DNA of 64,000 nucleotides, taken from positions 16,046 through 80,045 of the forward strand of contig JAGXRQ010000095.1 of the NCBI GenBank assembly GCA_018335675.1. The letters are read 5' to 3'. Both the position numbers and the translations under genes were made by a program. This stretch comes from Bacteroidota bacterium. Its GTDB lineage: Bacteria; Bacteroidota; Bacteroidia; Bacteroidales; UBA7960. Position 1 is the stretch's first letter. Each line of letters opens with the position of its first letter. The notes below the pieces were generated by a model, which saw only the letters and a program-made list of their open reading frames with translations, had not been told where the DNA came from and made no database searches. This document shows, piece after piece, positions 53,575 through 64,000 of this stretch.

Positions 53575-54408
53575 CTATTTCTTTTTAAAACAAAGCGAAA
53601 TCCACTCTTTTTCAAGTTTTTCTCCAACATGTTCAAGGCCCAAAGAAGTCGCCTTATCTTCAATTAAACTTTTATCAATACTAAAAAACCCGCTAAATAA
53701 GATTAAGCCACTCTGATTAAGAACCTTGCTGTAACTTTCCATATCTTCCAGCAATACATTTCGAGTAATATTTGCAATTATAATATCAAACTTTTGCTTT
53801 CCCAAAGCAGTAGCATCTCCAAGTATAACTTCAATGTTTTTGCAGTTATTTCTTTCAACGTTTTCAATAGTATTTTCGTAGGCATAAATATAATTATCAA
53901 TAGCAGTAAGTGTTTTAGCCCCTCTTTTTTCGGCTAGAATTGCCAAAACTCCGGTACCGCAACCCATATCCAAAACAGTTTTATCTTTAAAGTCAATCTC
54001 AAGCAACCATTTTACCATAAGAGAAGTAGTTTCGTGATGCCCGGGTCCGAACGACATTTTAGGCTCTATTATCAACTCATAAGTAATCCCTTTCTTTTCT
54101 TCATGAAAAGGCGCCCTGATATAACAATCTTCTATATGAACAGGTTCGAAGTTGCTTTCCCAAACCTGATTCCAATTAGTATCATCTATTTTTTTAACAT
54201 TATATGATATATCAACTTTGGGGTTGTCTGAAAACTGTGATGCCTCTTTAATTGCGTCTTCACTAAAGAGTTTGCCTTCAATATAGCCCTTAAAACCATT
54301 CTCAGTTTCTTCGAAACTATCAAACCCAATATCAGCAAGTTGTGCAATTAAAATATCTGCCCAAGGGTCTTTGGGTGCGACAATATATGTAACTTCAACG
54401 TAATCCAT
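53575..54408 (-). CDS. prmA: ribosomal protein L11 methyltransferase
   Basis: 277 aa. SAM-binding VLDMGCGTGVLAI and the PrmA N-terminal domain are present. Confidence 0.9.
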   Translation of the reverse strand: MDYVEVTYIVAPKDPWADILIAQLADIGFDSFEETENGFKGYIEGKLFSEDAIKEASQFSDNPKVDISYNVKKIDDTNWNQVWESNFEPVHIEDCYIRAPFHEEKKGITYELIIEPKMSFGPGHHETTSLMVKWLLEIDFKDKTVLDMGCGTGVLAILAEKRGAKTLTAIDNYIYAYENTIENVERNNCKNIEVILGDATALGKQKFDIIIANITRNVLLEDMESYSKVLNQSGLILFSGFFSIDKSLIEDKATSLGLEHVGEKLEKEWISLCFKKK

Positions 54409-54430
54409 GATTTAATACAATTTATTTTTG

Positions 54431-54680
54431 TTTCGTTCCTACGGAACTAATTTAATTAAATTTCTTCATTTGCTATAAACATTTCATCCCTACGGGATTA
54501 ACAAATTAAAAATTCGTACGTCTTATCTCCGTTAGCAGTGAAATCATATTTATCTATTAAAACTTCGCCTTTATGAATTACCACATTAATAATCTGTATG
54601 TTTTAACTCCGTTAGGAGTGAAATGTCTATAAAAAAATGGTATCCCAGTTTATTTAAAATCCCGGAGGGATGAAACCAAT
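54431..54680. repeat. cluster of five short hairpin units (YYCC-loop-GGRR adjoining TGAAAY), in both orientations
   Basis: The five units are gttcc-tac-ggaac (54435), atttcatccc-tac-gggat (54481), ctcc-gtta-gcag-tgaaat (54527), ctcc-gtta-ggag-tgaaat (54607) and tccc-gga-ggga-tgaaac (54660). Confidence 0.75.
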
Positions 54681-54724
54681 AAATATCATTCCTCAGCAGA
54701 TTTGATTCACCAAACAAAATCAAT

Positions 54725-55498
54725 CTAAAAAGAACAAATTATTTGGAAAAAATCAGAAGATTTAAGAGAAGCACCACCAATTAGTCCTCCATCCACATCA
54801 GTTTGTTTGAATAATTCCTTGGCATTCTGCGCATTACAACTTCCACCGTATAGAATTGAAATACTATTTGCTATTTCCATTCCATATTTTTCATTAATTA
54901 GATTGCGAATAAACTCATGCATTTCCTGAGCCTGTTGCGGAGACGCTGTTTCTCCTGTGCCTATTGCCCACACGGGTTCGTATGCAATTACAACCTTTTT
55001 AAAATCAGCCTCATCCATCCAGAATAAACTCTTAACAATCTGTTGTTTAACAACGTTAAAATGTTGTTCAGATTTTCTTTCCGGCAAAAGTTCACCACAG
55101 CAAAAAACAGGTATCAAGCTATTATCAATGGCCTGCGACACTTTTGCGGCTAATGCTTGGTCATCTTCTTTAAAATACTGCCTTCTTTCAGAATGACCAA
55201 CAAGAACGTGAGTAGCCCCAATAGACTTAAGCATAGTTGCTGAAACTTCACCTGTATATGCGCCTTTATCAGTTGAATAGCAATTTTGAGCTCCAACGTA
55301 CACTCCCTTTACCTTTTTCGCAATTTTTACAATTTCTGTAAGATGAGTGAATGGCGGAAAAAATATCACCTCAGGGTTGCCACTAATTGCACTTAATGGT
55401 TTATTGATAATCAGCTCGCAAATTGATGTTGCCAGCGCCTTGCCTTCTTCCAAAGTGGTGTTCATTTTCCAGTTTCCTGCTACAATATTCTTTTTCAT
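54725..55498 (-). CDS. tpiA: triose-phosphate isomerase
   Basis: 257 aa with AGNWKMN, VGHSERR, AYEPVWAIGTG and GGASL motifs. Confidence 0.95.
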   Translation of the reverse strand: MKKNIVAGNWKMNTTLEEGKALATSICELIINKPLSAISGNPEVIFFPPFTHLTEIVKIAKKVKGVYVGAQNCYSTDKGAYTGEVSATMLKSIGATHVLVGHSERRQYFKEDDQALAAKVSQAIDNSLIPVFCCGELLPERKSEQHFNVVKQQIVKSLFWMDEADFKKVVIAYEPVWAIGTGETASPQQAQEMHEFIRNLINEKYGMEIANSISILYGGSCNAQNAKELFKQTDVDGGLIGGASLKSSDFFQIICSF

Positions 55499-55560
55499 GA
55501 TGTGTATATTTTATCGTTTTTTATAATGCGATTTCGTTTTGTAAAATTATCGTTTTAATT

Positions 55561-55613
55561 TTAAGATTTGTAAGATTCTTAAGATTTGTAAGATGTAAGA
55601 TTTGTAAGATGTA
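55561..55613. repeat. 9/7-mer tandem array TAAGATTTG / TAAGATG
   Basis: taagatttg taagattct taagatttg taagatg taagatttg taagatg taa. Confidence 0.9.
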
Positions 55614-55616
55614 ACC

Positions 55617-55700
55617 CGAAGCTGGAAGTCCCTATCGGGAGCTTCCAGTTCTAGCGTGAGGAACTTCCAGCTTCCGCGACAGCGGAACTGGAAGCTTCCG
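55617..55700. repeat. two adjacent long hairpins built from CTGGAAG/CTTCCAG units
   Basis: gaagctggaagtccc-tatc-gggagcttccagttc and ggaacttccagcttccgc-gaca-gcggaactggaagcttcc. Confidence 0.7.
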
Positions 55701-55707
55701 GGGGTAT

Positions 55708-55736
55708 TATTTAATCCCTAAAACTCGCCTTTTTTT
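55708..55736 (+). repeat. left copy of the 29-bp direct repeat bracketing the CRISPR-Cas locus
   Basis: atttaatccCtaaaactcgcctttttttt. It is 28/29 identical to 62476-62504 in the same orientation. Confidence 0.85.
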
Positions 55737-55767
55737 TCTTCAATCTTACAAATCTTGCAAATCAAAG

Positions 55768-56792
55768 AGTAGTGTATTATTCCATTTTTAAATCAAACCA
55801 CAACACTACTCCTGCTTTTGTAGTGTTTTTACTAGTTGTTAATTATTCCATTTTTAAATCAAACCACAACATGTTTATTTAGAAAGAGCCGCAAATGGTG
55901 GTTGTTAATTATTCCATTTTTAAATCAAACCACAACACGTCACAGGCTATTGCATCATCCACCGCAGTTGTTAATTATTCCATTTTTAAATCAAACCACA
56001 ACCTACCCATAATTACAAATGCCACCAATAGGTTGTTAATTATTCCATTTTTAAATCAAACCACAACCAGCTTAAACAACCTGCCGTTGATAAACATGTT
56101 GTTAATTATTCCATTTTTAAATCAAACCACAACTTCCGCGTATTCTACGTAATTGCTGTCAATGTTGTTAATTATTCCATTTTTAAATCAAACCACAACA
56201 AAAGACAGTGATAGCTTTTCATTTAAAAAGTTGTTAATTATTCCATTTTTAAATCAAACCACAACCTGACCCACGAATAAAGGAACTTGAAGAAAGTTGT
56301 TAATTATTCCATTTTTAAATCAAACCACAACTGCTTCAATGATAAGGCACTCCGAATCATTGTTGTTAATTATTCCATTTTTAAATCAAACCACAACCAT
56401 CTGCGCTGCGCTGTTTTGATTAATCCAGTTGTTAATTATTCCATTTTTAAATCAAACCACAACATTGCTAGCCGCCGGACAATATACAGAATGGTTGTTA
56501 ATTATTCCATTTTTAAATCAAACCACAACGTAGCGACGCGCAATTATTGGAAGAAATTGGTTGTTAATTATTCCATTTTTAAATCAAACCACAACAAAAA
56601 ACATGCACAACCCCTTGATTGAGTAGTTGTTAATTATTCCATTTTTAAATCAAACCACAACCCCCCGCCTTACTTGTTTCCTTATATACGCGTTGTTAAT
56701 TATTCCATTTTTAAATCAAACCACAACATTGATTTTACAATCAAAATAAGCTATTATGTTGTTAATTATTCCATTTTTAAATCAAACCACAA
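55768..56792 (-). CRISPR. CRISPR array, 16 repeats of 36 bp and 15 spacers (14 x 30 bp, 1 x 29 bp)
   Basis: Plus-strand repeat is GTTGTTAATTATTCCATTTTTAAATCAAACCACAAC. Repeat starts: 55768 (degenerate, 3 mismatches), 55834, 55900, 55966, 56031, 56097, 56163, 56229, 56295, 56361, 56427, 56493, 56559, 56625, 56691, 56757. Minus-strand transcription is inferred from tracrRNA complementarity and from the degenerate repeat lying at the cas-distal end. Confidence 0.97.
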
Positions 56793-56921
56793 CATAGAGC
56801 TTTAAAACATATTAAAAATAGATGTTTTGAAGTGTTTTTTATCACAAGAAAAACACCAACAAACTTCTATGAAGTAGTTTGATTATGGTTATTTTATTTT
56901 TCCAATTATGTCAAAGAACTT
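56793..56921 (-). promoter_or_regulatory. putative CRISPR leader (cas2 stop to first repeat)
   Basis: 129-bp AT-rich non-coding stretch adjacent to the non-degenerate end of the array. No clean TAnnTTTG was found, so read-through from cas2 is possible. Confidence 0.5.
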
Positions 56922-57260
56922 TTAAAACAATTCCAGTTGAGCAGGTGCAGAACCCATTTCCTTTTCTTTTCTTCCAATAAAGTTTACAATATTACCATAT
57001 TGTTTATCTGTTATTGAAAGAATACTTACCTGCCCTTTTTCCGGCACAAATCGCCTAACTCTTTTTACATGCACTTCTGCCGATTCACGACTGGCACAAT
57101 GCCTTATATAAACCGAATATTGCATCATTGTAAAACCATCTTTTATCAGGTTTTTTCTAAAGCCTGTTGCAGCTTTGATTTGCTTTTTAGTGGTAACCGG
57201 TAAATCAAAAAACACAAATAACCACATTATATGATACGCATTTAGCCTTAACTGCTCCAT
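56922..57260 (-). CDS. cas2: CRISPR-associated endoribonuclease Cas2
   Basis: 112 aa. MWLFVFFDLPVTTKKQ...MQYSVYIRH is the typical Cas2 ferredoxin-like N-terminus. It lies 6 nt downstream of cas1. Confidence 0.9.
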   Translation of the reverse strand: MEQLRLNAYHIMWLFVFFDLPVTTKKQIKAATGFRKNLIKDGFTMMQYSVYIRHCASRESAEVHVKRVRRFVPEKGQVSILSITDKQYGNIVNFIGRKEKEMGSAPAQLELF

Positions 57261-57266
57261 TTTACA

Positions 57267-58157
57267 TTATTGCAATAAAGGATATTTTATTTTTTTTGTT
57301 TCTCCGAAAAAGCACTTTACCAATGATGCTGTTGTATTTGATAACGCAATCATCAAAGGTCTTCTGTTTTTGTCTATAAATACATCATCTGCCAGAACTT
57401 TAAGCAACTCCGCTTTGGTTTCTTTATTAAGAAACTGGTCCTCCGGATTATTTTTGTATATATTATAAACCCTTGCATCAACAAATGGGCGGTACGGCTC
57501 CATTATGTCATCTGCAAGGCAATATGAATTATATTTATTACTGTGATGGATCCCCAATGCGGGCATCAAACCTGAACCAACCAAAGCTCTGGCAACGGCT
57601 GCTCTCAATATTATATAACCATAATTCAATAAATCATTGGGGTATTCTCCAAATCTCTCACGGTTAAAATCCTTACCAAACAACTTTCCCCAATACTCTC
57701 TTGCAGCAGCACCTTCACGATTTTCGGGATCACCTGATTTAACATCTTTTGCAAAACTTAATACAGTATTATGTTTAATCCCTAGCTTTTTTAATAAATA
57801 TGCCTGATTTGTGATTTTTGCCTCTACTGTTTGTTTCCAAAGGTTCTTTTTTAAAGGAATACCGGCTTCAATCTGTTGTCTAATCGTTTCATTCTGAGTA
57901 TTGTTTCCGTCAAGATTAAGCAACATTGACTGTGGGTGGTGCTTTGAATTGCAAAACACAATAGCAGCATTATTACTCATTAAAGCCTCTATTAGTGACA
58001 TACTTAAACTTAGTCTCATATTTTCCAGAATCACAAAACCAATATCCTCTATCGGCACACTAACGATATCACCGTCTGCTTCAGGTGTTGCAATAAGTTG
58101 ATTATTTTGTAAATTCAACTTATATGGATTTGAGAAAAACAATGTGCGTTTTAGCAT
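57267..58157 (-). CDS. cas1: CRISPR-associated integrase Cas1 (type II)
   Basis: 296 aa. The catalytic region is GIHHSNKYNSYCLADDIMEPYRPFVD. It lies 11 nt downstream of cas9. Confidence 0.95.
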   Translation of the reverse strand: MLKRTLFFSNPYKLNLQNNQLIATPEADGDIVSVPIEDIGFVILENMRLSLSMSLIEALMSNNAAIVFCNSKHHPQSMLLNLDGNNTQNETIRQQIEAGIPLKKNLWKQTVEAKITNQAYLLKKLGIKHNTVLSFAKDVKSGDPENREGAAAREYWGKLFGKDFNRERFGEYPNDLLNYGYIILRAAVARALVGSGLMPALGIHHSNKYNSYCLADDIMEPYRPFVDARVYNIYKNNPEDQFLNKETKAELLKVLADDVFIDKNRRPLMIALSNTTASLVKCFFGETKKIKYPLLQ

Positions 58158-58168
58158 AAATTCATTAT

Positions 58169-61100
58169 TTATAATTGAATTATTTTACCCAATGCTGTTA
58201 TTTTAAAATCAAAGCCCTCAACTATTGTATTAAACTGGTTGTGATTTAATTTTCGCTGAGGTTTATGTTCTTCATCAATGCAAAAGGCACCATCTTGAAC
58301 CTTTAAATCAGATGCTTGTGTGGCTTCTTGGTGAAACCTTAAAACTATTGTTGCATATTCGCCAATTTTTCCAGATGGTCTTATTATACGTTGATTACTT
58401 AATCCAATAATCTTATAAAGCCTCTTCTTAATTTCAGAATGTTCTAAGTCCCAGACTTCTTCCGGTGATTTTTCCCAAAGAATAACGAGTGTTCCTATTT
58501 TAATAATAGATTTTAAAGGTAATTCCAGCTTTCCATTATTTTTTGCCTTCGGTATTAAGCCATAATAACCTTCGATGTTTTGAGCTTTCAATTCTTTCTG
58601 AACTGAGTATTTAAAAAACTCTGCCGCTTCAAGGTTTGATTTCAATTCAAAATCTCTTTTTATGTTACCATTTTCATCTTTGCCTTCATATATGGCCATC
58701 ATATAGTTACTGTCATTTGCAACATGAAAATACTCCTTATACGGCTTTGGATTTATTAATGCTTTGTCTCTTTGCTTTTTAAGATGTATTGGGTTTGTAA
58801 CCGACGGGGTATAGATTCTAACTTTTTTTATTGGAATAGGCTCTCCGTTTTTATTTGGAAGTGAATATATCTTTTGTATTTCTTTCTCAAGGTTCTCGAT
58901 TTCACTTTTTAAAATAGATTCTTCACTTTCTTCGGCTTTGCTCAACTTCTTTTTCAAATTATCAATTTCGCTTCTAAGAATCTTTTCTTTTTTACGCCCA
59001 TCTTCAACAATTTGTCTAACTCTCTCATCAACAATATTTTTTATGTTTGAATCTTCAAAATTGTTATCCAGAGCCTTTCTAACTACATATTTAATCTGTT
59101 TTTCAATTTCACCATTTTTATTAACTATCTCTTTTTCAATAGCTCCGTAGAAAGTATCTTTATGCAGGCTTCCTCTTACGGAATCTCCCTTTTGGTATAT
59201 GGCATTACCATTTTTATCTTTTACAACTCTACCTCTTTTTCTGAGTTTTTTCTTACTTTGCTTTGGTAAAACATCAGGAGTGTAGTGTGAAATTAAAACC
59301 TCATCTTCAAGTCTCTTCAAGTCTTCCGTGAAAGTATTCCAAGGCTTTGGAGTATTAAACTTGTATTTCGTGTCATTTATAAAGCTATCATCTCTGTCAT
59401 GATAATATTTTGCAAGGTTTTCATAGTTTTCTTTAGTCATGCATGCAATTACAACGGCGTCAATACAATGATGCACGTGATTAACTCTTTCTTTTTTCTC
59501 ATAATCATTCTGCAAACCCCACATTTTCCTAAAATCTGCAACAGTATTACCCTTAACAGTATATACTTTGTCAAATACAGTTTTCATGTATAAACGCCCA
59601 TATTTTGCAATTATGCCCATATCAACCAATTGACTGTTTTTGAATCCTTGGGGCACATCTATCATAAAAAAGCGACTCAATTTATTTCTGTAATAATCCC
59701 TCTCAAAGCATAGTCTGTGTCTTTTTTGTATTGCTCTATCTTTGCTATCTTTTTCAGCAGCTCCCTTGGATGCCCTTATAGCAGCCTGCACTTGTTTATC
59801 TAGTTCTTCTATCTTTGCAAGCCAAAGTCTTTCAACCCTTTCTTTTATTTCATCATAGTTAGAAATTTCAGATGGTAAATTATTCTTCTTGATAGAGCGG
59901 TTAAACCTGTTGTTGCACAACGTTTTATTTTCCTGAGAGTTATCAAAAGAAAGGCTTCTGGGGATGGTATGTTCTATATCATATTGAGGATTTGAACCAA
60001 GAAATTCACTTAAAGCAATTTCCTCTCCTGTATAAATACATTTATGCCCTTGTTCCTCCCAAAGCTGATATTTTAAAACATCGTCCTCACTTGGTTGAGT
60101 AGTCATTCCCTGAGCCTTATAATGCTCAAGAATACTTTCATAATATTTTTTTCTTATAGTTTCTCTATCTCTTTGCCAAGTTTGCAAAGCTTTCCTTTCA
60201 TTAGCATTAAGTAAGCCACGGGACATTTCAATGTTCACCTTAGTGTTCTCATCAATTATTTCATTATTTATCAACTCGTTGATTACTTTTCTTAGTTGAT
60301 GTAATGCCCTCATTGCCATCGGATTTCTAATTGAGGAGATTAGCGGACTTCCTAGATACTTCTTCCCATTGTCATCTTTTTTAGCCGGCTTATACACTTC
60401 AATAGCAGAAGGGTGATAAATATTATCCAGTTTTTTAATATCTGCCTTGTAATTATTTAATAAGAAATCTTTTACTCTTTCATCAATGGTTTGAATCTTT
60501 AAAAAGTCGCCACGACCTAAATTCTTTATCATTTGGGTTTTAAGCTGACTTAATGCTCTGCTCTCTATTCTTTTCTTAATTTCATCAGGAAAAGAATTAT
60601 ACGTTTTCTCCCCAAAATAGGATAATAATCCTTTTACTAAATCATTATGATAATAACTAATTGATTCATCACTCCAGCACTCTCCATTCTCTCTGCAATT
60701 CTTGATTATTCCATTAATAATTTCAATAATTGCTTTTTCCTCATTTTGTGTTTCAATGATATTTATTATCTCACCATTAATTTTGTTTCTTTTTATCTCA
60801 TCAGTCCATATTTCTTGTGGCAAGGCATTAGACATATTAGCTAAAACAACAGCGTGGGAATAAATAAGCCCACTTCTTAGATAAGGTAGTATATTCTTTA
60901 GCGCCTTTAAACTTAGTGAAGCAAATTCATTTTTTAATTTAATTCTGGAAAATTCAGCAATTTGTTCATCATCTAGTTTTAGTTTATTTTTTGCAAATTC
61001 AACCAATTTTTCATCATTATTAAAAGTCATCAACACATGCCAAACATCGTCAATATTTATCATTGATGTTTTTCCATCTTTTTTTCTAACATGTTCAATA

Positions 61101-62218
61101 TGCCAATTTAAAAAATCATCACCAAAAATGCTTTTAAATCTTGCTGATACAGGGTTGCCACTAACTGTAGTGTTCATTTGGTAATTAAATATATAGTCTT
61201 CAGCTTTTTTGTCCCTGTCCTTAAAATACTTGTATCTGTTTTTGGGGGCTAATGCTTTCGCAATATCTTCAAATGGAAAATGATCTTTTTTAAGGTAGAA
61301 TTTTTCAATTACTTTTTTTCGTTCTTCCTCATTTAGTGGTCTAAGTTTTTCATCTTCAGGGGTTTGTATTCGAATATTATTCACAAAGCATAACATTCTG
61401 TATTCTTCAAATAAAGGATGAGAAACAGAGCACCTTTGTTTATTCTTTTCAAAAACACACATTCCAATTAATCCTTTTTGTGACTTCAACGGTCTTTGGA
61501 AAAAAATAGCTTTATAAATCTTGTTCTTAAAATCATCTGAAAGCTCTTGAACTTCACAAATTTTATCAAACTCCTCTAAATAATGTTCTTCTCTATGAGT
61601 ATATTGATCGCGGATTTTCTCCCCTTTTAAATACTTTTCATAAAAAAATTGCCCAAGGGTTTTCTCTCCTTTTGCAATATTTATTTCCTCAATATTCTTT
61701 TTTACAGCACCATCAGATTCTTTAGTTCCTTCAAGTCTATTGCTTAAAAAACCTCTTCTTTGTGCTATATGATATAATGCCCTACCTATTATGAATCTGT
61801 TATTCTCAACATTTTGGTCAAGCTTCTCCGTTGCACAAATACTCCTGAAATAATAAGGATTACGATTTGACATTTCATCTGTTTTCCACCAAGCATGAAA
61901 CAATTCATTAGTTGGGTAAACTTTTTTGTAGCGCCAATTAAAAAGATCTTCTTCACTGATTTTTGGGCAAAATCCATATTCTGTTAATACTTTAAGAGTT
62001 TCTATTTTCCTCAGCTTTCTTCTGAATTTCAGCCTTCTGGCACTTCTATATTTTGTTCTTTCAGCTGCCTTGGAGTTTTCAATACCTTTCTCAATTTTTA
62101 CTCCCTCTTGAAATATTCTTACTCCTTTTTCAATAAGTTTAAAACTTTCTTTATCTTTTTCAACCACAGCCCATCCGATGCTGTTAGTTCCGAGGTCAAG
62201 TCCCAAAATTTTCGTCAT
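58169..62218 (-). CDS. cas9: Cas9 (type II-C context), 1349 aa
   Basis: RuvC-I ILGLDLGTNSIGWAV (D8), an Arg-rich bridge helix (aa ~52-72), RuvC-II NIEMSR (E664), HNH YDIEHTIPRS...NNRFNRSIKKN (H750, codon 59971-59969 checked) and RuvC-III NHVHHCIDA (H917 and D920, codons checked). No csn2 or cas4 in the locus. Confidence 0.95.
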   Translation of the reverse strand: MTKILGLDLGTNSIGWAVVEKDKESFKLIEKGVRIFQEGVKIEKGIENSKAAERTKYRSARRLKFRRKLRKIETLKVLTEYGFCPKISEEDLFNWRYKKVYPTNELFHAWWKTDEMSNRNPYYFRSICATEKLDQNVENNRFIIGRALYHIAQRRGFLSNRLEGTKESDGAVKKNIEEINIAKGEKTLGQFFYEKYLKGEKIRDQYTHREEHYLEEFDKICEVQELSDDFKNKIYKAIFFQRPLKSQKGLIGMCVFEKNKQRCSVSHPLFEEYRMLCFVNNIRIQTPEDEKLRPLNEEERKKVIEKFYLKKDHFPFEDIAKALAPKNRYKYFKDRDKKAEDYIFNYQMNTTVSGNPVSARFKSIFGDDFLNWHIEHVRKKDGKTSMINIDDVWHVLMTFNNDEKLVEFAKNKLKLDDEQIAEFSRIKLKNEFASLSLKALKNILPYLRSGLIYSHAVVLANMSNALPQEIWTDEIKRNKINGEIINIIETQNEEKAIIEIINGIIKNCRENGECWSDESISYYHNDLVKGLLSYFGEKTYNSFPDEIKKRIESRALSQLKTQMIKNLGRGDFLKIQTIDERVKDFLLNNYKADIKKLDNIYHPSAIEVYKPAKKDDNGKKYLGSPLISSIRNPMAMRALHQLRKVINELINNEIIDENTKVNIEMSRGLLNANERKALQTWQRDRETIRKKYYESILEHYKAQGMTTQPSEDDVLKYQLWEEQGHKCIYTGEEIALSEFLGSNPQYDIEHTIPRSLSFDNSQENKTLCNNRFNRSIKKNNLPSEISNYDEIKERVERLWLAKIEELDKQVQAAIRASKGAAEKDSKDRAIQKRHRLCFERDYYRNKLSRFFMIDVPQGFKNSQLVDMGIIAKYGRLYMKTVFDKVYTVKGNTVADFRKMWGLQNDYEKKERVNHVHHCIDAVVIACMTKENYENLAKYYHDRDDSFINDTKYKFNTPKPWNTFTEDLKRLEDEVLISHYTPDVLPKQSKKKLRKRGRVVKDKNGNAIYQKGDSVRGSLHKDTFYGAIEKEIVNKNGEIEKQIKYVVRKALDNNFEDSNIKNIVDERVRQIVEDGRKKEKILRSEIDNLKKKLSKAEESEESILKSEIENLEKEIQKIYSLPNKNGEPIPIKKVRIYTPSVTNPIHLKKQRDKALINPKPYKEYFHVANDSNYMMAIYEGKDENGNIKRDFELKSNLEAAEFFKYSVQKELKAQNIEGYYGLIPKAKNNGKLELPLKSIIKIGTLVILWEKSPEEVWDLEHSEIKKRLYKIIGLSNQRIIRPSGKIGEYATIVLRFHQEATQASDLKVQDGAFCIDEEHKPQRKLNHNQFNTIVEGFDFKITALGKIIQL

Positions 62219-62264
62219 AGCTAAATGTTTTTATAGTAAATTATGTTTATTTGAATTAGTTCTA

Positions 62265-62272
62265 TATCTTTG
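62265..62272 (+). promoter_or_regulatory. candidate -7 promoter element for tracrRNA
   Basis: TATCTTTG (TAnnTTTG) lies ~12 nt upstream of the anti-repeat, on the strand opposite cas9 and 47 nt from the cas9 ATG. Confidence 0.5.
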
Positions 62273-62276
62273 CAAC

Positions 62277-62368
62277 AAGATATAAAATTCCATTTTAAAT
62301 CTTATCACAATAAGGCTATATGCCGAAGGATTTTTATCCTATACTCCCGCTTCGGTGGGAGTTTTTTA
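62277..62368 (+). ncRNA. tracrRNA: tracrRNA (anti-repeat, nexus, hairpin, terminator hairpin)
   Basis: The anti-repeat at 62284-62311 (AAAAUUCCAUUUUAAAUCUUAUCACAAU) pairs with the minus-strand repeat transcript GUUGUGGUUUGAUUUAAAAAUGGAAU. It is followed by AAGGCUAUAUGCC (compare the SpCas9 nexus AAGGCUAGUCC), AGGAU-UUUU-AUCCU, and ACUCCCGC-UUCG-GUGGGAGU with U6. The 5' end is estimated from the promoter motif only. Confidence 0.8.
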
Positions 62369-62475
62369 TTTACGTGTAAATATAATTAATTTTTACAAAA
62401 TAAAATTCGTGTTTTCGTCTAAGTAATTTTTGTTATTTGTCTTCTAATAATTATGAAAAAATACTTTGCATAAAA

Positions 62476-62504
62476 ATTTAATCCTTAAAACTCGCCTTTT
62501 TTTT
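62476..62504 (+). repeat. right copy of the 29-bp direct repeat bracketing the CRISPR-Cas locus
   Basis: atttaatccTtaaaactcgcctttttttt. It is 28/29 identical to 55708-55736. Confidence 0.85.
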
Positions 62505-62625
62505 ATACCTTTTACCATTATCCCAAAACTCAAAACCCAAAACCTAAAACCCAAAACCCCAACCTAAAACCTAATCCCCAATCTTACCAATCTTACAAAT
62601 CTTCAATCTTACCAATCAAAAAAAA
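62505..62625. repeat. heptamer tandem array (CCCAAAA / CCTAAAA units changing stepwise into CAATCTT units)
   Basis: cccaaaa ctcaaaa cccaaaa cctaaaa cccaaaa ccccaa cctaaaa cctaatc cccaatc ttaccaatc ttacaaatc ttcaatc ttaccaatc. Confidence 0.9.
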
Positions 62626-62670
62626 ATGTAGTTTTGGAATCGGAATTATTATTCATTATACAATATTTAT

Positions 62671-64000
62671 ATGCAAAAAGACCAACAGTTATCTGCAGAT
62701 GTGGTTGTTATTGGAGGTGGTATAAGTGGGCTTACTGCGGCGGCGTTGCTTAATAATGTTGGCTTGAAAACCATTGTATTAGAACAAAGTGCTCAATCGG
62801 GTGGCTACCTCGCTAAGTATGTGAAGAATGGTTTTTCTTTCGATACATCTATACACTGGCTTAATCATTGCAACTCTGAAGGTGTTGTTAGTAAGGTATT
62901 TAATATTATTGGCAACGACTTTCCTGTTGCATCTACTCAGCATAGAATTAAGAGGTTTCTGGGCAAAAATTTCGATTATATTCTTACCAGCAATCCCGAC
63001 GATTTGAAAAATGATCTCATTAGAGATTTTCCTGAAGACAAGGATGGCATTGAGAAATTTTTTCATGCTGCAAAAAAAATGACTCCTTTATTTAAACGTT
63101 TTCATGAGTATTACAGAACTAGTGATACAATGAATCAGTTTGAGAAAATCAAGTACAATCTTACGAGACTTAAATTTGCATTGCCTTTTATAAAGTTTAT
63201 AAAATACTCGGGTAAGAAAGGAAAGATCAAGGGGCTAAACAGATACTTCAAATCTCCGGTTTTTCATGAGATTTTCTCCAACGAGCCGGATCTGCTTTCA
63301 TGCCTTATCCCTATTGCATGGGCGTATAATAAAGATTTCCAAAATCCTCCGGAAGATGGCAGTCAATCATATCCCAAATGGCTTGAGAAAAAGACTCATG
63401 AGCTTGGCGGTCAAATAATTAACAATGCAAAAGCTAAAAAAATTACTCACAAAAATGGCAGATGCAATTCAGTAATATTTGAACAAAAAAAGCAGAAACA
63501 TGAAATTCTTTGCTCGAATGTTATTGCAGCCTGCGATATTATTTCTCTTTATGAAGATATAATGCCTGAGGAATACAGTCCGAAAAAAATGCTGAAAAAG
63601 CTTAAATCTGCCGAACTATACAGCTCTGCAATAGTTGTTAATATATCTCTTGATTGTCCGGCCGAAAAATTCGGACTTAATGAGGAGCTTATAATGTTCA
63701 ACAAATACGAACTTAAGCAGTCAAACCTTGATAATCCTGAAACACCAATCAGCCATCTGTCTGTTTTTTCTCAGTCGGCCAGAAATAAAGGATTGGCTCC
63801 TGAAGGTAAAGGTTCTCTTACTATTATTATGCCTACATCTTTTGAAAGTCACAACAGATGGGAAACAACCACACATGAAAATGGAAATATCGTAAGAGGA
63901 GATAATTATAAAAAGCTTAAACAAAAATATGCCGAAGTAATTATCGACAGGCTTGAGGAATTTTTGAAAAATGACATAAGAAAGCACATAATTGAATATA
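62671..64000 (+). CDS. FAD/NAD(P)-binding oxidoreductase, phytoene desaturase (CrtI/CrtD)-like family, 3'-truncated by window end
   Basis: Absent from the ORF track because no stop lies within the window. ATG at 62671, and I read 443 codons without a stop. The N-terminus is MQKDQQLSADVVVIGGGISGLTAAALL...VLEQ (Rossmann GxGxxG). Confidence 0.8.
   Translation, partial: MQKDQQLSADVVVIGGGISGLTAAALLNNVGLKTIVLEQSAQSGGYLAKYVKNGFSFDTSIHWLNHCNSEGVVSKVFNIIGNDFPVASTQHRIKRFLGKNFDYILTSNPDDLKNDLIRDFPEDKDGIEKFFHAAKKMTPLFKRFHEYYRTSDTMNQFEKIKYNLTRLKFALPFIKFIKYSGKKGKIKGLNRYFKSPVFHEIFSNEPDLLSCLIPIAWAYNKDFQNPPEDGSQSYPKWLEKKTHELGGQIINNAKAKKITHKNGRCNSVIFEQKKQKHEILCSNVIAACDIISLYEDIMPEEYSPKKMLKKLKSAELYSSAIVVNISLDCPAEKFGLNEELIMFNKYELKQSNLDNPETPISHLSVFSQSARNKGLAPEGKGSLTIIMPTSFESHNRWETTTHENGNIVRGDNYKKLKQKYAEVIIDRLEEFLKNDIRKHIIEY

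Follow-up and report, generated by a model that had tools for sequence, protein, structure and literature searches.

A predicted tracrRNA gene divergent from cas9 in a type II-C CRISPR-Cas9 locus of an uncultured Bacteroidota bacterium

The region 62277-62368 on the plus strand very probably represents the canonical tracrRNA gene of a Bacteroidota type II-C CRISPR-Cas9 locus. All positions refer to the window, i.e. the whole analysed stretch of 64,000 nt taken from contig JAGXRQ010000095.1 (assembly GCA_018335675.1). The assignment is based on the agreement between the anatomy of the gene, covariation, the uniqueness of its scaffold in the genome and conserved synteny. A first-pass annotation had already proposed a tracrRNA at this site, and the anatomy, the covariation with local repeats and the family-wide synteny confirm this identification. 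The parts of the gene are as follows:

62277-62368, plus strand: predicted tracrRNA gene, with the 5' end expected at about 62276-62279 (from the -7 box) and the 3' end in the T-run 62363-62368
62265-62272, plus strand: TATCTTTG, -7 box of the predicted tracrRNA promoter, fitting the Bacteroidota consensus TAnnTTTG
62287-62311, plus strand: anti-repeat AUUCCAUUUUAAAUCUUAUCACAAU, 25 nt, from cofolding with the repeat and upper-stem covariation in relatives
62312-62325, plus strand: nexus AAGGCUAUAUGCCG, with a GGC/GCC stem at 62314-62324 that is invariant in 19/19 sequences
62327-62340, plus strand: hairpin 1, AGGAU-UUUU-AUCCU, 5 bp, with compensatory changes in two of the five pairs among relatives
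62343-62368, plus strand: GC-rich intrinsic terminator, stem at 62343-62362 with the loop UUCG, then the T-run

A nexus, one hairpin and a GC-rich terminator followed by a T-run had been described at first pass, and the same scaffold was recovered by folding and by a terminator scan. The TAnnTTTG element reported at 62265-62272 is likewise present as TATCTTTG and fits the consensus exactly. The terminator stem comprises 8 pairs, 5 of them G-C, and is followed by a T-rich tail; most of its pairs show compensatory changes. The fold of the tracrRNA has a z-score of -5.0, and none of 200 shuffled sequences folded as well. The longest open frame at the site does not exceed 46 codons.

The locus is arranged in the order tracrRNA, cas9, cas1, cas2, leader and 16-repeat array. 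Its further components are:

58169-62218, minus strand: cas9, 1349 aa, type II-C (TIGR01865 at 462 bits; HNH_4, RuvC_III and Cas9_a domains)
57267-58157, minus strand: cas1 (PF01867, E = 2.8e-26)
56922-57260, minus strand: cas2 (PF09827, E = 1.9e-18)
55769-56793, minus strand (crRNA sense): CRISPR array of 16 repeats of 36 nt and 15 spacers of 29-30 nt

Neither csn2 nor cas4 was found in the locus. The array has a period of 66 nt and is separated from cas2 by a leader of 128 nt. In crRNA sense, which is the minus strand, the repeat reads GTTGTGGTTTGATTTAAAAATGGAATAATTAACAAC and the array runs from the leader to a degenerate repeat. This terminal repeat (55769-55804) is the one farthest from the cas genes and carries 3 mismatches. 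The gene cas9 is single-copy in the 3.36-Mb assembly (genome G+C of 34.6%), and a gene for RNase III was found in the genome as well. The closest relatives of the Cas9 protein, with 57-64% identity, derive from Draconibacterium, Saccharicrinis and other Prolixibacteraceae-like Bacteroidota. With the tracrRNA included, the type II-C system of this uncultured Prolixibacteraceae-like bacterium is annotated in full (tracrRNA, cas9, cas1, cas2, leader and array).

The pairing of the repeat with 62277-62368 (+) was evaluated using RNAcofold. It consists of a helix of 8 bp, a 2x2 UU/UU loop, a helix of 9 bp, a bulged A in the crRNA and a helix of 6 bp, hence 23 bp in three helices. The 8-bp helix includes G.U pairs at repeat positions 1 and 7. 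The duplex has a predicted energy of -47.0 kcal/mol, compared to -29.5 kcal/mol with the opposite repeat strand. Its lower stem adjoins the nexus and the spacer, which corresponds to the canonical orientation of a Cas9 guide. The geometry matches in every detail the one read by hand in the first-pass annotation, which had suggested this very check.

The duplex energy is not unique in the genome. A genome-wide search for anti-repeats, combining a wobble-aware ungapped scan with duplex folding in a 45-nt window, revealed three other sites with slightly better energies (-24.9 to -27.0 kcal/mol, compared to -24.3 kcal/mol for the anti-repeat). The identification thus rests on scaffold, context and covariation. 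The three sites, together with an 11-bp repeat-complementary stretch in the leader (56874-56900), would fit a scenario in which the complementarity next to cas9 is fortuitous, no RNA is made there and the functional anti-repeat is located elsewhere in the genome. However, all eight rival sites that were checked, the top three included, lie within stop-free frames of 236-1206 codons. They also lack the tracrRNA scaffold: in a scan of this genome, covariance model R1, which was built from an alignment of 19 scaffolds, matches the cas9-adjacent site only (62299-62367, E = 8.7e-18; next best 0.57). The leader stretch forms a weak duplex (-16.6 vs -24.3 kcal/mol) and has no scaffold either. Moreover, covariation and synteny hold in more than 30 loci. 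A fortuitous match is therefore extremely unlikely and is effectively refuted by the comparative data. That another RNA of the genome could supply the anti-repeat had been raised at first pass as the point that would speak against a tracrRNA; the R1 scan of the genome yielded no such candidate with a scaffold.

For the comparison, 23 loci encoding relatives of this Cas9 were fetched, 22 of which include upstream sequence. The motif AUCUUAUCACAAUAAGGCUAUAUGCCGAAGG, followed by a hairpin and a GC-rich terminator, is found in 21/22 of these and is divergent from cas9. In L008 the element is located ~520 nt from the cas9 ATG, in the other relatives just upstream. In relatives with an available array, the local repeat and the variable upper stem of the anti-repeat have changed in concert, as seen in the pairs GAUGUAGGA:UUCUACAUC in L001, GAUGAUGAA:UUCAUCAUC in L019 and GAUUGAAAAUUG:CAAUUUUCAAUC in L007. 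These loci retain the lower stem and also the UU/UU loop, the latter with L021 and L023 as exceptions. In an alignment of 19 sequences, 9 of 16 scaffold pairs exhibit compensatory changes while the nexus stem is invariant. The Bacteroidaceae loci L013, L015, L019, L021 and L023 have the same scaffold as the window. In 18/21 related loci the tracrRNA strand carries an exact TAnnTTTG at a distance of 24-54 nt on the 5' side of the CACAAUAAGGC anchor; by a rough estimate, such an element is expected by chance in ~3% of 30-nt AT-rich windows.

Model R1 was also applied to a set of 150 further genomes representing different families and genera of the order. Exactly one match each was obtained in 24 of them (25/151 including this genome). 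Eleven of the R1-positive loci were fetched, and all of them (11/11) show the RNA divergent from the cas9 start; the distance between anchor and ATG is 68-159 nt. The corresponding distance in the window is 87 nt, which is mid-range for the family. Tight spacing of tracrRNA and cas9 is hence the family norm and not special to this locus. Together with the 19-scaffold alignment, the annotation provides a usable guide-RNA scaffold for this group of ~1350-aa Cas9 proteins.

Two variations among the relatives were seen in addition. In L021 and L023 (Bacteroidaceae), the anti-repeat carries AA in place of UU, which closes the loop and results in a continuous helix of 18 bp. In L009 and L012 the array has the opposite orientation with respect to cas9, but the tracrRNA is found in its usual place and direction beside cas9, so array orientation is not fixed in this family.

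By analogy with the family and with the established type II mechanism, the transcription, exact ends, processing and function of the tracrRNA can be outlined as follows. The RNA would be transcribed from its own promoter of the Bacteroidota type with TATCTTTG as -7 box, starting at about 62276-62279. Transcription would end at the GC-rich intrinsic terminator, within the T-run after 62362. The 25-nt anti-repeat is predicted to pair with the first 26 nt of each repeat in the minus-strand pre-crRNA. Cas9 would bind this duplex, the nexus and both 3' hairpins, and RNase III probably trims the duplex. The resulting crRNA:tracrRNA pair would then guide Cas9 to its DNA targets.

Further observations concern the array and the borders of the locus. 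Two 29-nt direct repeats at 55709-55737 and 62476-62504, with 28/29 identity and the sequence ATTTAATCC[C/T]TAAAACTCGCCTTTTTTTT, enclose the whole tracrRNA-cas9-cas1-cas2-array unit. Each of them adjoins short tandem tracts of the CAATCTT/ACAAATC type, and these tracts also form inverted pairs across the locus. The region of the tracrRNA and the cas9 start has no significant match in genomes of the same genus. Bracketing repeats and the missing match suggest that the locus is an insertion or a variable island. A search for the empty site in the same-genus genome G001 found the crtI-like flank, the neighbourhood of which is not syntenic.

Within every repeat of the array, nt 4-11 (GTGGTTTG) form an octamer ending in TTTG, similar to the Bacteroidota -7 box apart from two mismatches in the TA. 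The octamer sits in the conserved 5' half of the repeat, which reads GTTGTGGTTTGAT family-wide. Repeat-embedded promoters have been reported for type II-C arrays of Flavobacterium (PMC10309648). An active octamer would give rise to one crRNA precursor per repeat, initiated ~20 nt ahead of the next spacer. The minus-strand leader contains AAUCAAACUAC (56874-56900), complementary to nt 4-14 of the repeat (11 bp), which is probably a degenerate repeat remnant or due to chance.

The spacers were compared to phage sequences and to the assembly itself. None of the 15 spacers has a match among the INPHARED phages, and the 3' 22 nt of spacers 1-3 have none in IMG/VR. Spacer 9 (56200-56229, minus strand, TTTTTAAATGAAAAGCTATCACTGTCTTTT) shows a perfect 30/30 match in the same assembly (contig C128:16276-16305, corresponding to L036:8277-8306). 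The target is an ORF of 797 aa similar to TonB-dependent receptors (CarbopepD_reg_2 and Plug domains), and the 3' flank reads GGAATACGAA. Spacer 9 may be self-targeting, tolerated either because the PAM is non-permissive or because the system is inactive or repressed; a bin of mixed strains is an alternative. The flank of this perfect self-match was not taken as a valid PAM, and interference may or may not be active in this cell. Nucleotides 12-30 of spacer 14 match contig C63:3190-3208 with one mismatch (GCTCTTTCTACATAAACAT; 3' flank TTCCAAT; BLAST E = 0.045 against the own genome), which may represent a diverged protospacer or chance. A shorter match of the same spacer lies upstream of cas9:

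62243-62252, minus strand: AAATAAACAT, identical over 10 nt with the 3' (seed) end of spacer 14 and located 25-34 nt before the cas9 ATG; probably a chance match

Matches of 11 nt suffice for Cas9-mediated repression in S. pyogenes and F. novicida (10.1101/2020.05.21.102756). Given its position, the seed match could thus allow crRNA 14 to direct Cas9 to its own promoter region, where it would bind without cutting. We consider this very improbable. The match is at chance level, as it is equalled by 3.2% of dinucleotide shuffles and by 4.5% of genomic windows of similar GC, and no 3' seed match of at least 9 nt to the own cas9 upstream region was found in 13 related arrays (0/13). The 3' flank AATTTAC differs from GGAATAC, the flank of the only full protospacer found. 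Moreover, spacers are acquired and lost and hence do not constitute a stable regulatory device.

The first-pass annotation had placed the tracrRNA about 60 nt from the cas9 start codon and its -7 box ~45 nt away, in divergent orientation. Both distances hold, as the cas9 ATG is separated by 58 nt from position 62277 and by 46 nt from the -7 box. It was further stated that the cas9 promoter must overlap the tracrRNA gene, which is correct in part. With only 46 nt between -7 box and ATG, either the promoter regions interleave (<60 bp) or cas9 is transcribed from beyond the tracrRNA gene and thus through it. Overlap with the transcribed part is however not required, because a cas9 5' UTR of ≤ 18 nt would suffice to keep a 40-nt promoter upstream of 62277 and off the transcribed tracrRNA. 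As there is no minus-strand gene upstream from which transcription could read through, the cas9 promoter must be located within 62219-62670.

This arrangement raises the possibility that both units are coupled by antisense transcription or promoter interference. The cas9 promoter would then be located inside or beyond the tracrRNA gene, so that transcription of the two units would collide or the tracrRNA would be overlapped by an antisense cas9 5' UTR. The levels of cas9 and tracrRNA would be linked, e.g. via cutting of the duplex by RNase III, as a layer added to the canonical function of the tracrRNA. Besides the short distance, which is even reduced to 28 nt between -7 box and ATG in a relative of the same family (counted from the alignment), such coupling is consistent with the lack of an exact TAnnTTTG on the cas9 strand within 700 nt in this window. 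Such a box between the cas9 ATG and the tracrRNA gene occurs in only 3/21 relatives. Since the stem of the tracrRNA terminator lacks an A-run on its 5' side, the terminator is not bidirectional and would not stop minus-strand transcription. The confinement of the cas9 promoter to 62219-62670 points in the same direction. However, a missing consensus box is weak evidence since non-consensus promoters exist, and with a short 5' UTR as described above the promoter would not reach into the transcribed tracrRNA. Among the relatives, a search for conserved promoter motifs on the cas9 strand found none at a consistent position within or beyond the tracrRNA gene. Moreover, the distance from the ATG to the tracrRNA varies from about 56 to 211 nt in relatives, which argues against a constrained overlap. 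Taken together, coupling of this kind is unlikely at this locus.

A clade-wide version of the idea is conceivable as well, although we regard it as quite improbable. Here cas9, which unlike the tracrRNA usually has no consensus -7 box on its own strand, might use a weak promoter overlapping or beyond the tracrRNA gene, and transcription of the tracrRNA, or its pairing with an antisense cas9 5' UTR, would set the Cas9 levels. If true, this would be a conserved and guide-independent coupling of tracrRNA and Cas9. The placement of the cas9 promoter is in any case a question for the whole family rather than a locus-specific one, with a tracrRNA promoter 30-60 nt from the cas9 start codon.

Autoregulation guided by the tracrRNA itself, also considered at first pass, is not borne out. 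In S. pyogenes a long tracrRNA (tracr-L) acts as a natural single guide, the 5' end of which matches the cas9 promoter beside a PAM, so that Cas9 represses its own operon. The criteria given by Workman et al. are a PAM, a match to Pcas9 of at least 11 bp and, directly following the guide portion, a lower stem resembling that of the repeat (10.1101/2020.05.21.102756). The case for such autorepression here is one of analogy, as S. pyogenes likewise has a divergent tracrRNA near cas9 (10.1101/2020.05.21.102756). However, a search of the tracrRNA strand from the anti-repeat to a point 400 nt inside cas9 did not reveal the lower-stem motif [GA]TTGTG[GA]T, which can pair with AUCACAAU, either in this locus or in 20 relatives. 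The repeat-like lower stem is thus lacking in 21/21 loci, and because it is absent, a guide portion is not definable. A second TAnnTTTG box was not observed either on the tracrRNA strand of this window between the anti-repeat and a point 150 nt inside cas9; the only one is at 62265. A longer form of the tracrRNA would moreover have to start inside the cas9 coding sequence. Finally, the preprint surveyed regulation only in one branch of type II-A, and the term 'II-C' is absent from its text (10.1101/2020.05.21.102756). Autorepression of the S. pyogenes kind is hence very unlikely, and a regulatory role of the canonical tracrRNA beyond the normal family arrangement is not supported by anything found here.

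The tracrRNA was compared to known systems. Rfam tracrRNA families gave no match at E ≤ 1 in 54000-64000, indicating that this type of RNA is not in Rfam 15, and a full-text literature search with the scaffold sequence returned unrelated primer matches only. The type II-A tracrRNA of S. pyogenes resembles the one in the window in being divergent from and upstream of cas9, in a similar nexus and in the GC-rich terminator at its end. The nexus of the SpCas9 guide scaffold is AAGGCUAGUCCG, compared to AAGGCUAUAUGCCG here. In contrast, the S. pyogenes locus is of type II-A with csn2 and uses two promoters, one of the sigma-70 type for the short form and another one upstream for tracr-L with its repeat-like lower stem and an 11-nt match to Pcas9; both the second promoter box and the lower stem are absent here.

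The type II-C loci of Riemerella and Flavobacterium are similar with respect to the anti-repeat upstream of cas9 and the order cas9-cas1-cas2-array (PMC5006608, PMC10309648). The promoter logic of the Bacteroidetes TAnnTTTG element is discussed for these loci as well (PMC5006608, PMC10309648), and for Flavobacterium psychrophilum the tracrRNA is drawn beside cas9 (PMC10309648). They differ by repeats of 47 nt and the anti-repeat TGAAAGCAATTCACAA, whereas the repeats here are 36 nt long. Moreover, transcription of their arrays reportedly proceeds toward the variable end from promoters embedded in the repeats, while the array described here runs from the leader to the degenerate repeat.

The closest correspondence is to CRISPRCas_38, the single new tracrRNA model of its study and a family of 599 instances, 578 of them in Bacteroidetes, which is confined to type II-C (Fremin & Kyrpides 2022, RNA Biol 19:678, PMC9067536). 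Its members are typically located within 100 bases upstream of cas9, and 50/599 overlap the annotated cas9 start (PMC9067536). The RNA in the window is alike in host phylum, subtype and position (58 nt here; cas9-cas1-cas2 without csn2 or cas4). Alignment rows in the supplement, from an unlabelled block that we assigned to CRISPRCas_38 by length (~85 nt) and content, contain a 28-nt core AAUCUUAUCACAAUAAGGCUAUAUGCCG that equals window positions 62299-62326 and an upstream UAUAUUUG box (PMC9067536). Judged by these alignment rows rather than by a covariance-model score, the window agrees with the CRISPRCas_38 core around CACAAUAAGG and the nexus stem. Most rows differ by representing a sister subgroup (GAAAGCAAUUCACAAUAAGGAUUAUUCCG), with the subgroup of the window in the minority, and the published model ends before the terminator hairpin. 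The literature thus already covers this RNA family, including how it lies divergent from cas9 and near its start (PMC9067536), and the locus adds no new principle. A structured RNA directly upstream of Bacteroides cas9, with signal in stranded RNA-seq, has also been described and was read as tracrRNA (Fremin & Bhatt 2020 preprint, 10.1101/2020.03.31.018887). This Bacteroides RNA likely belongs to the same family as the tracrRNA in the window.
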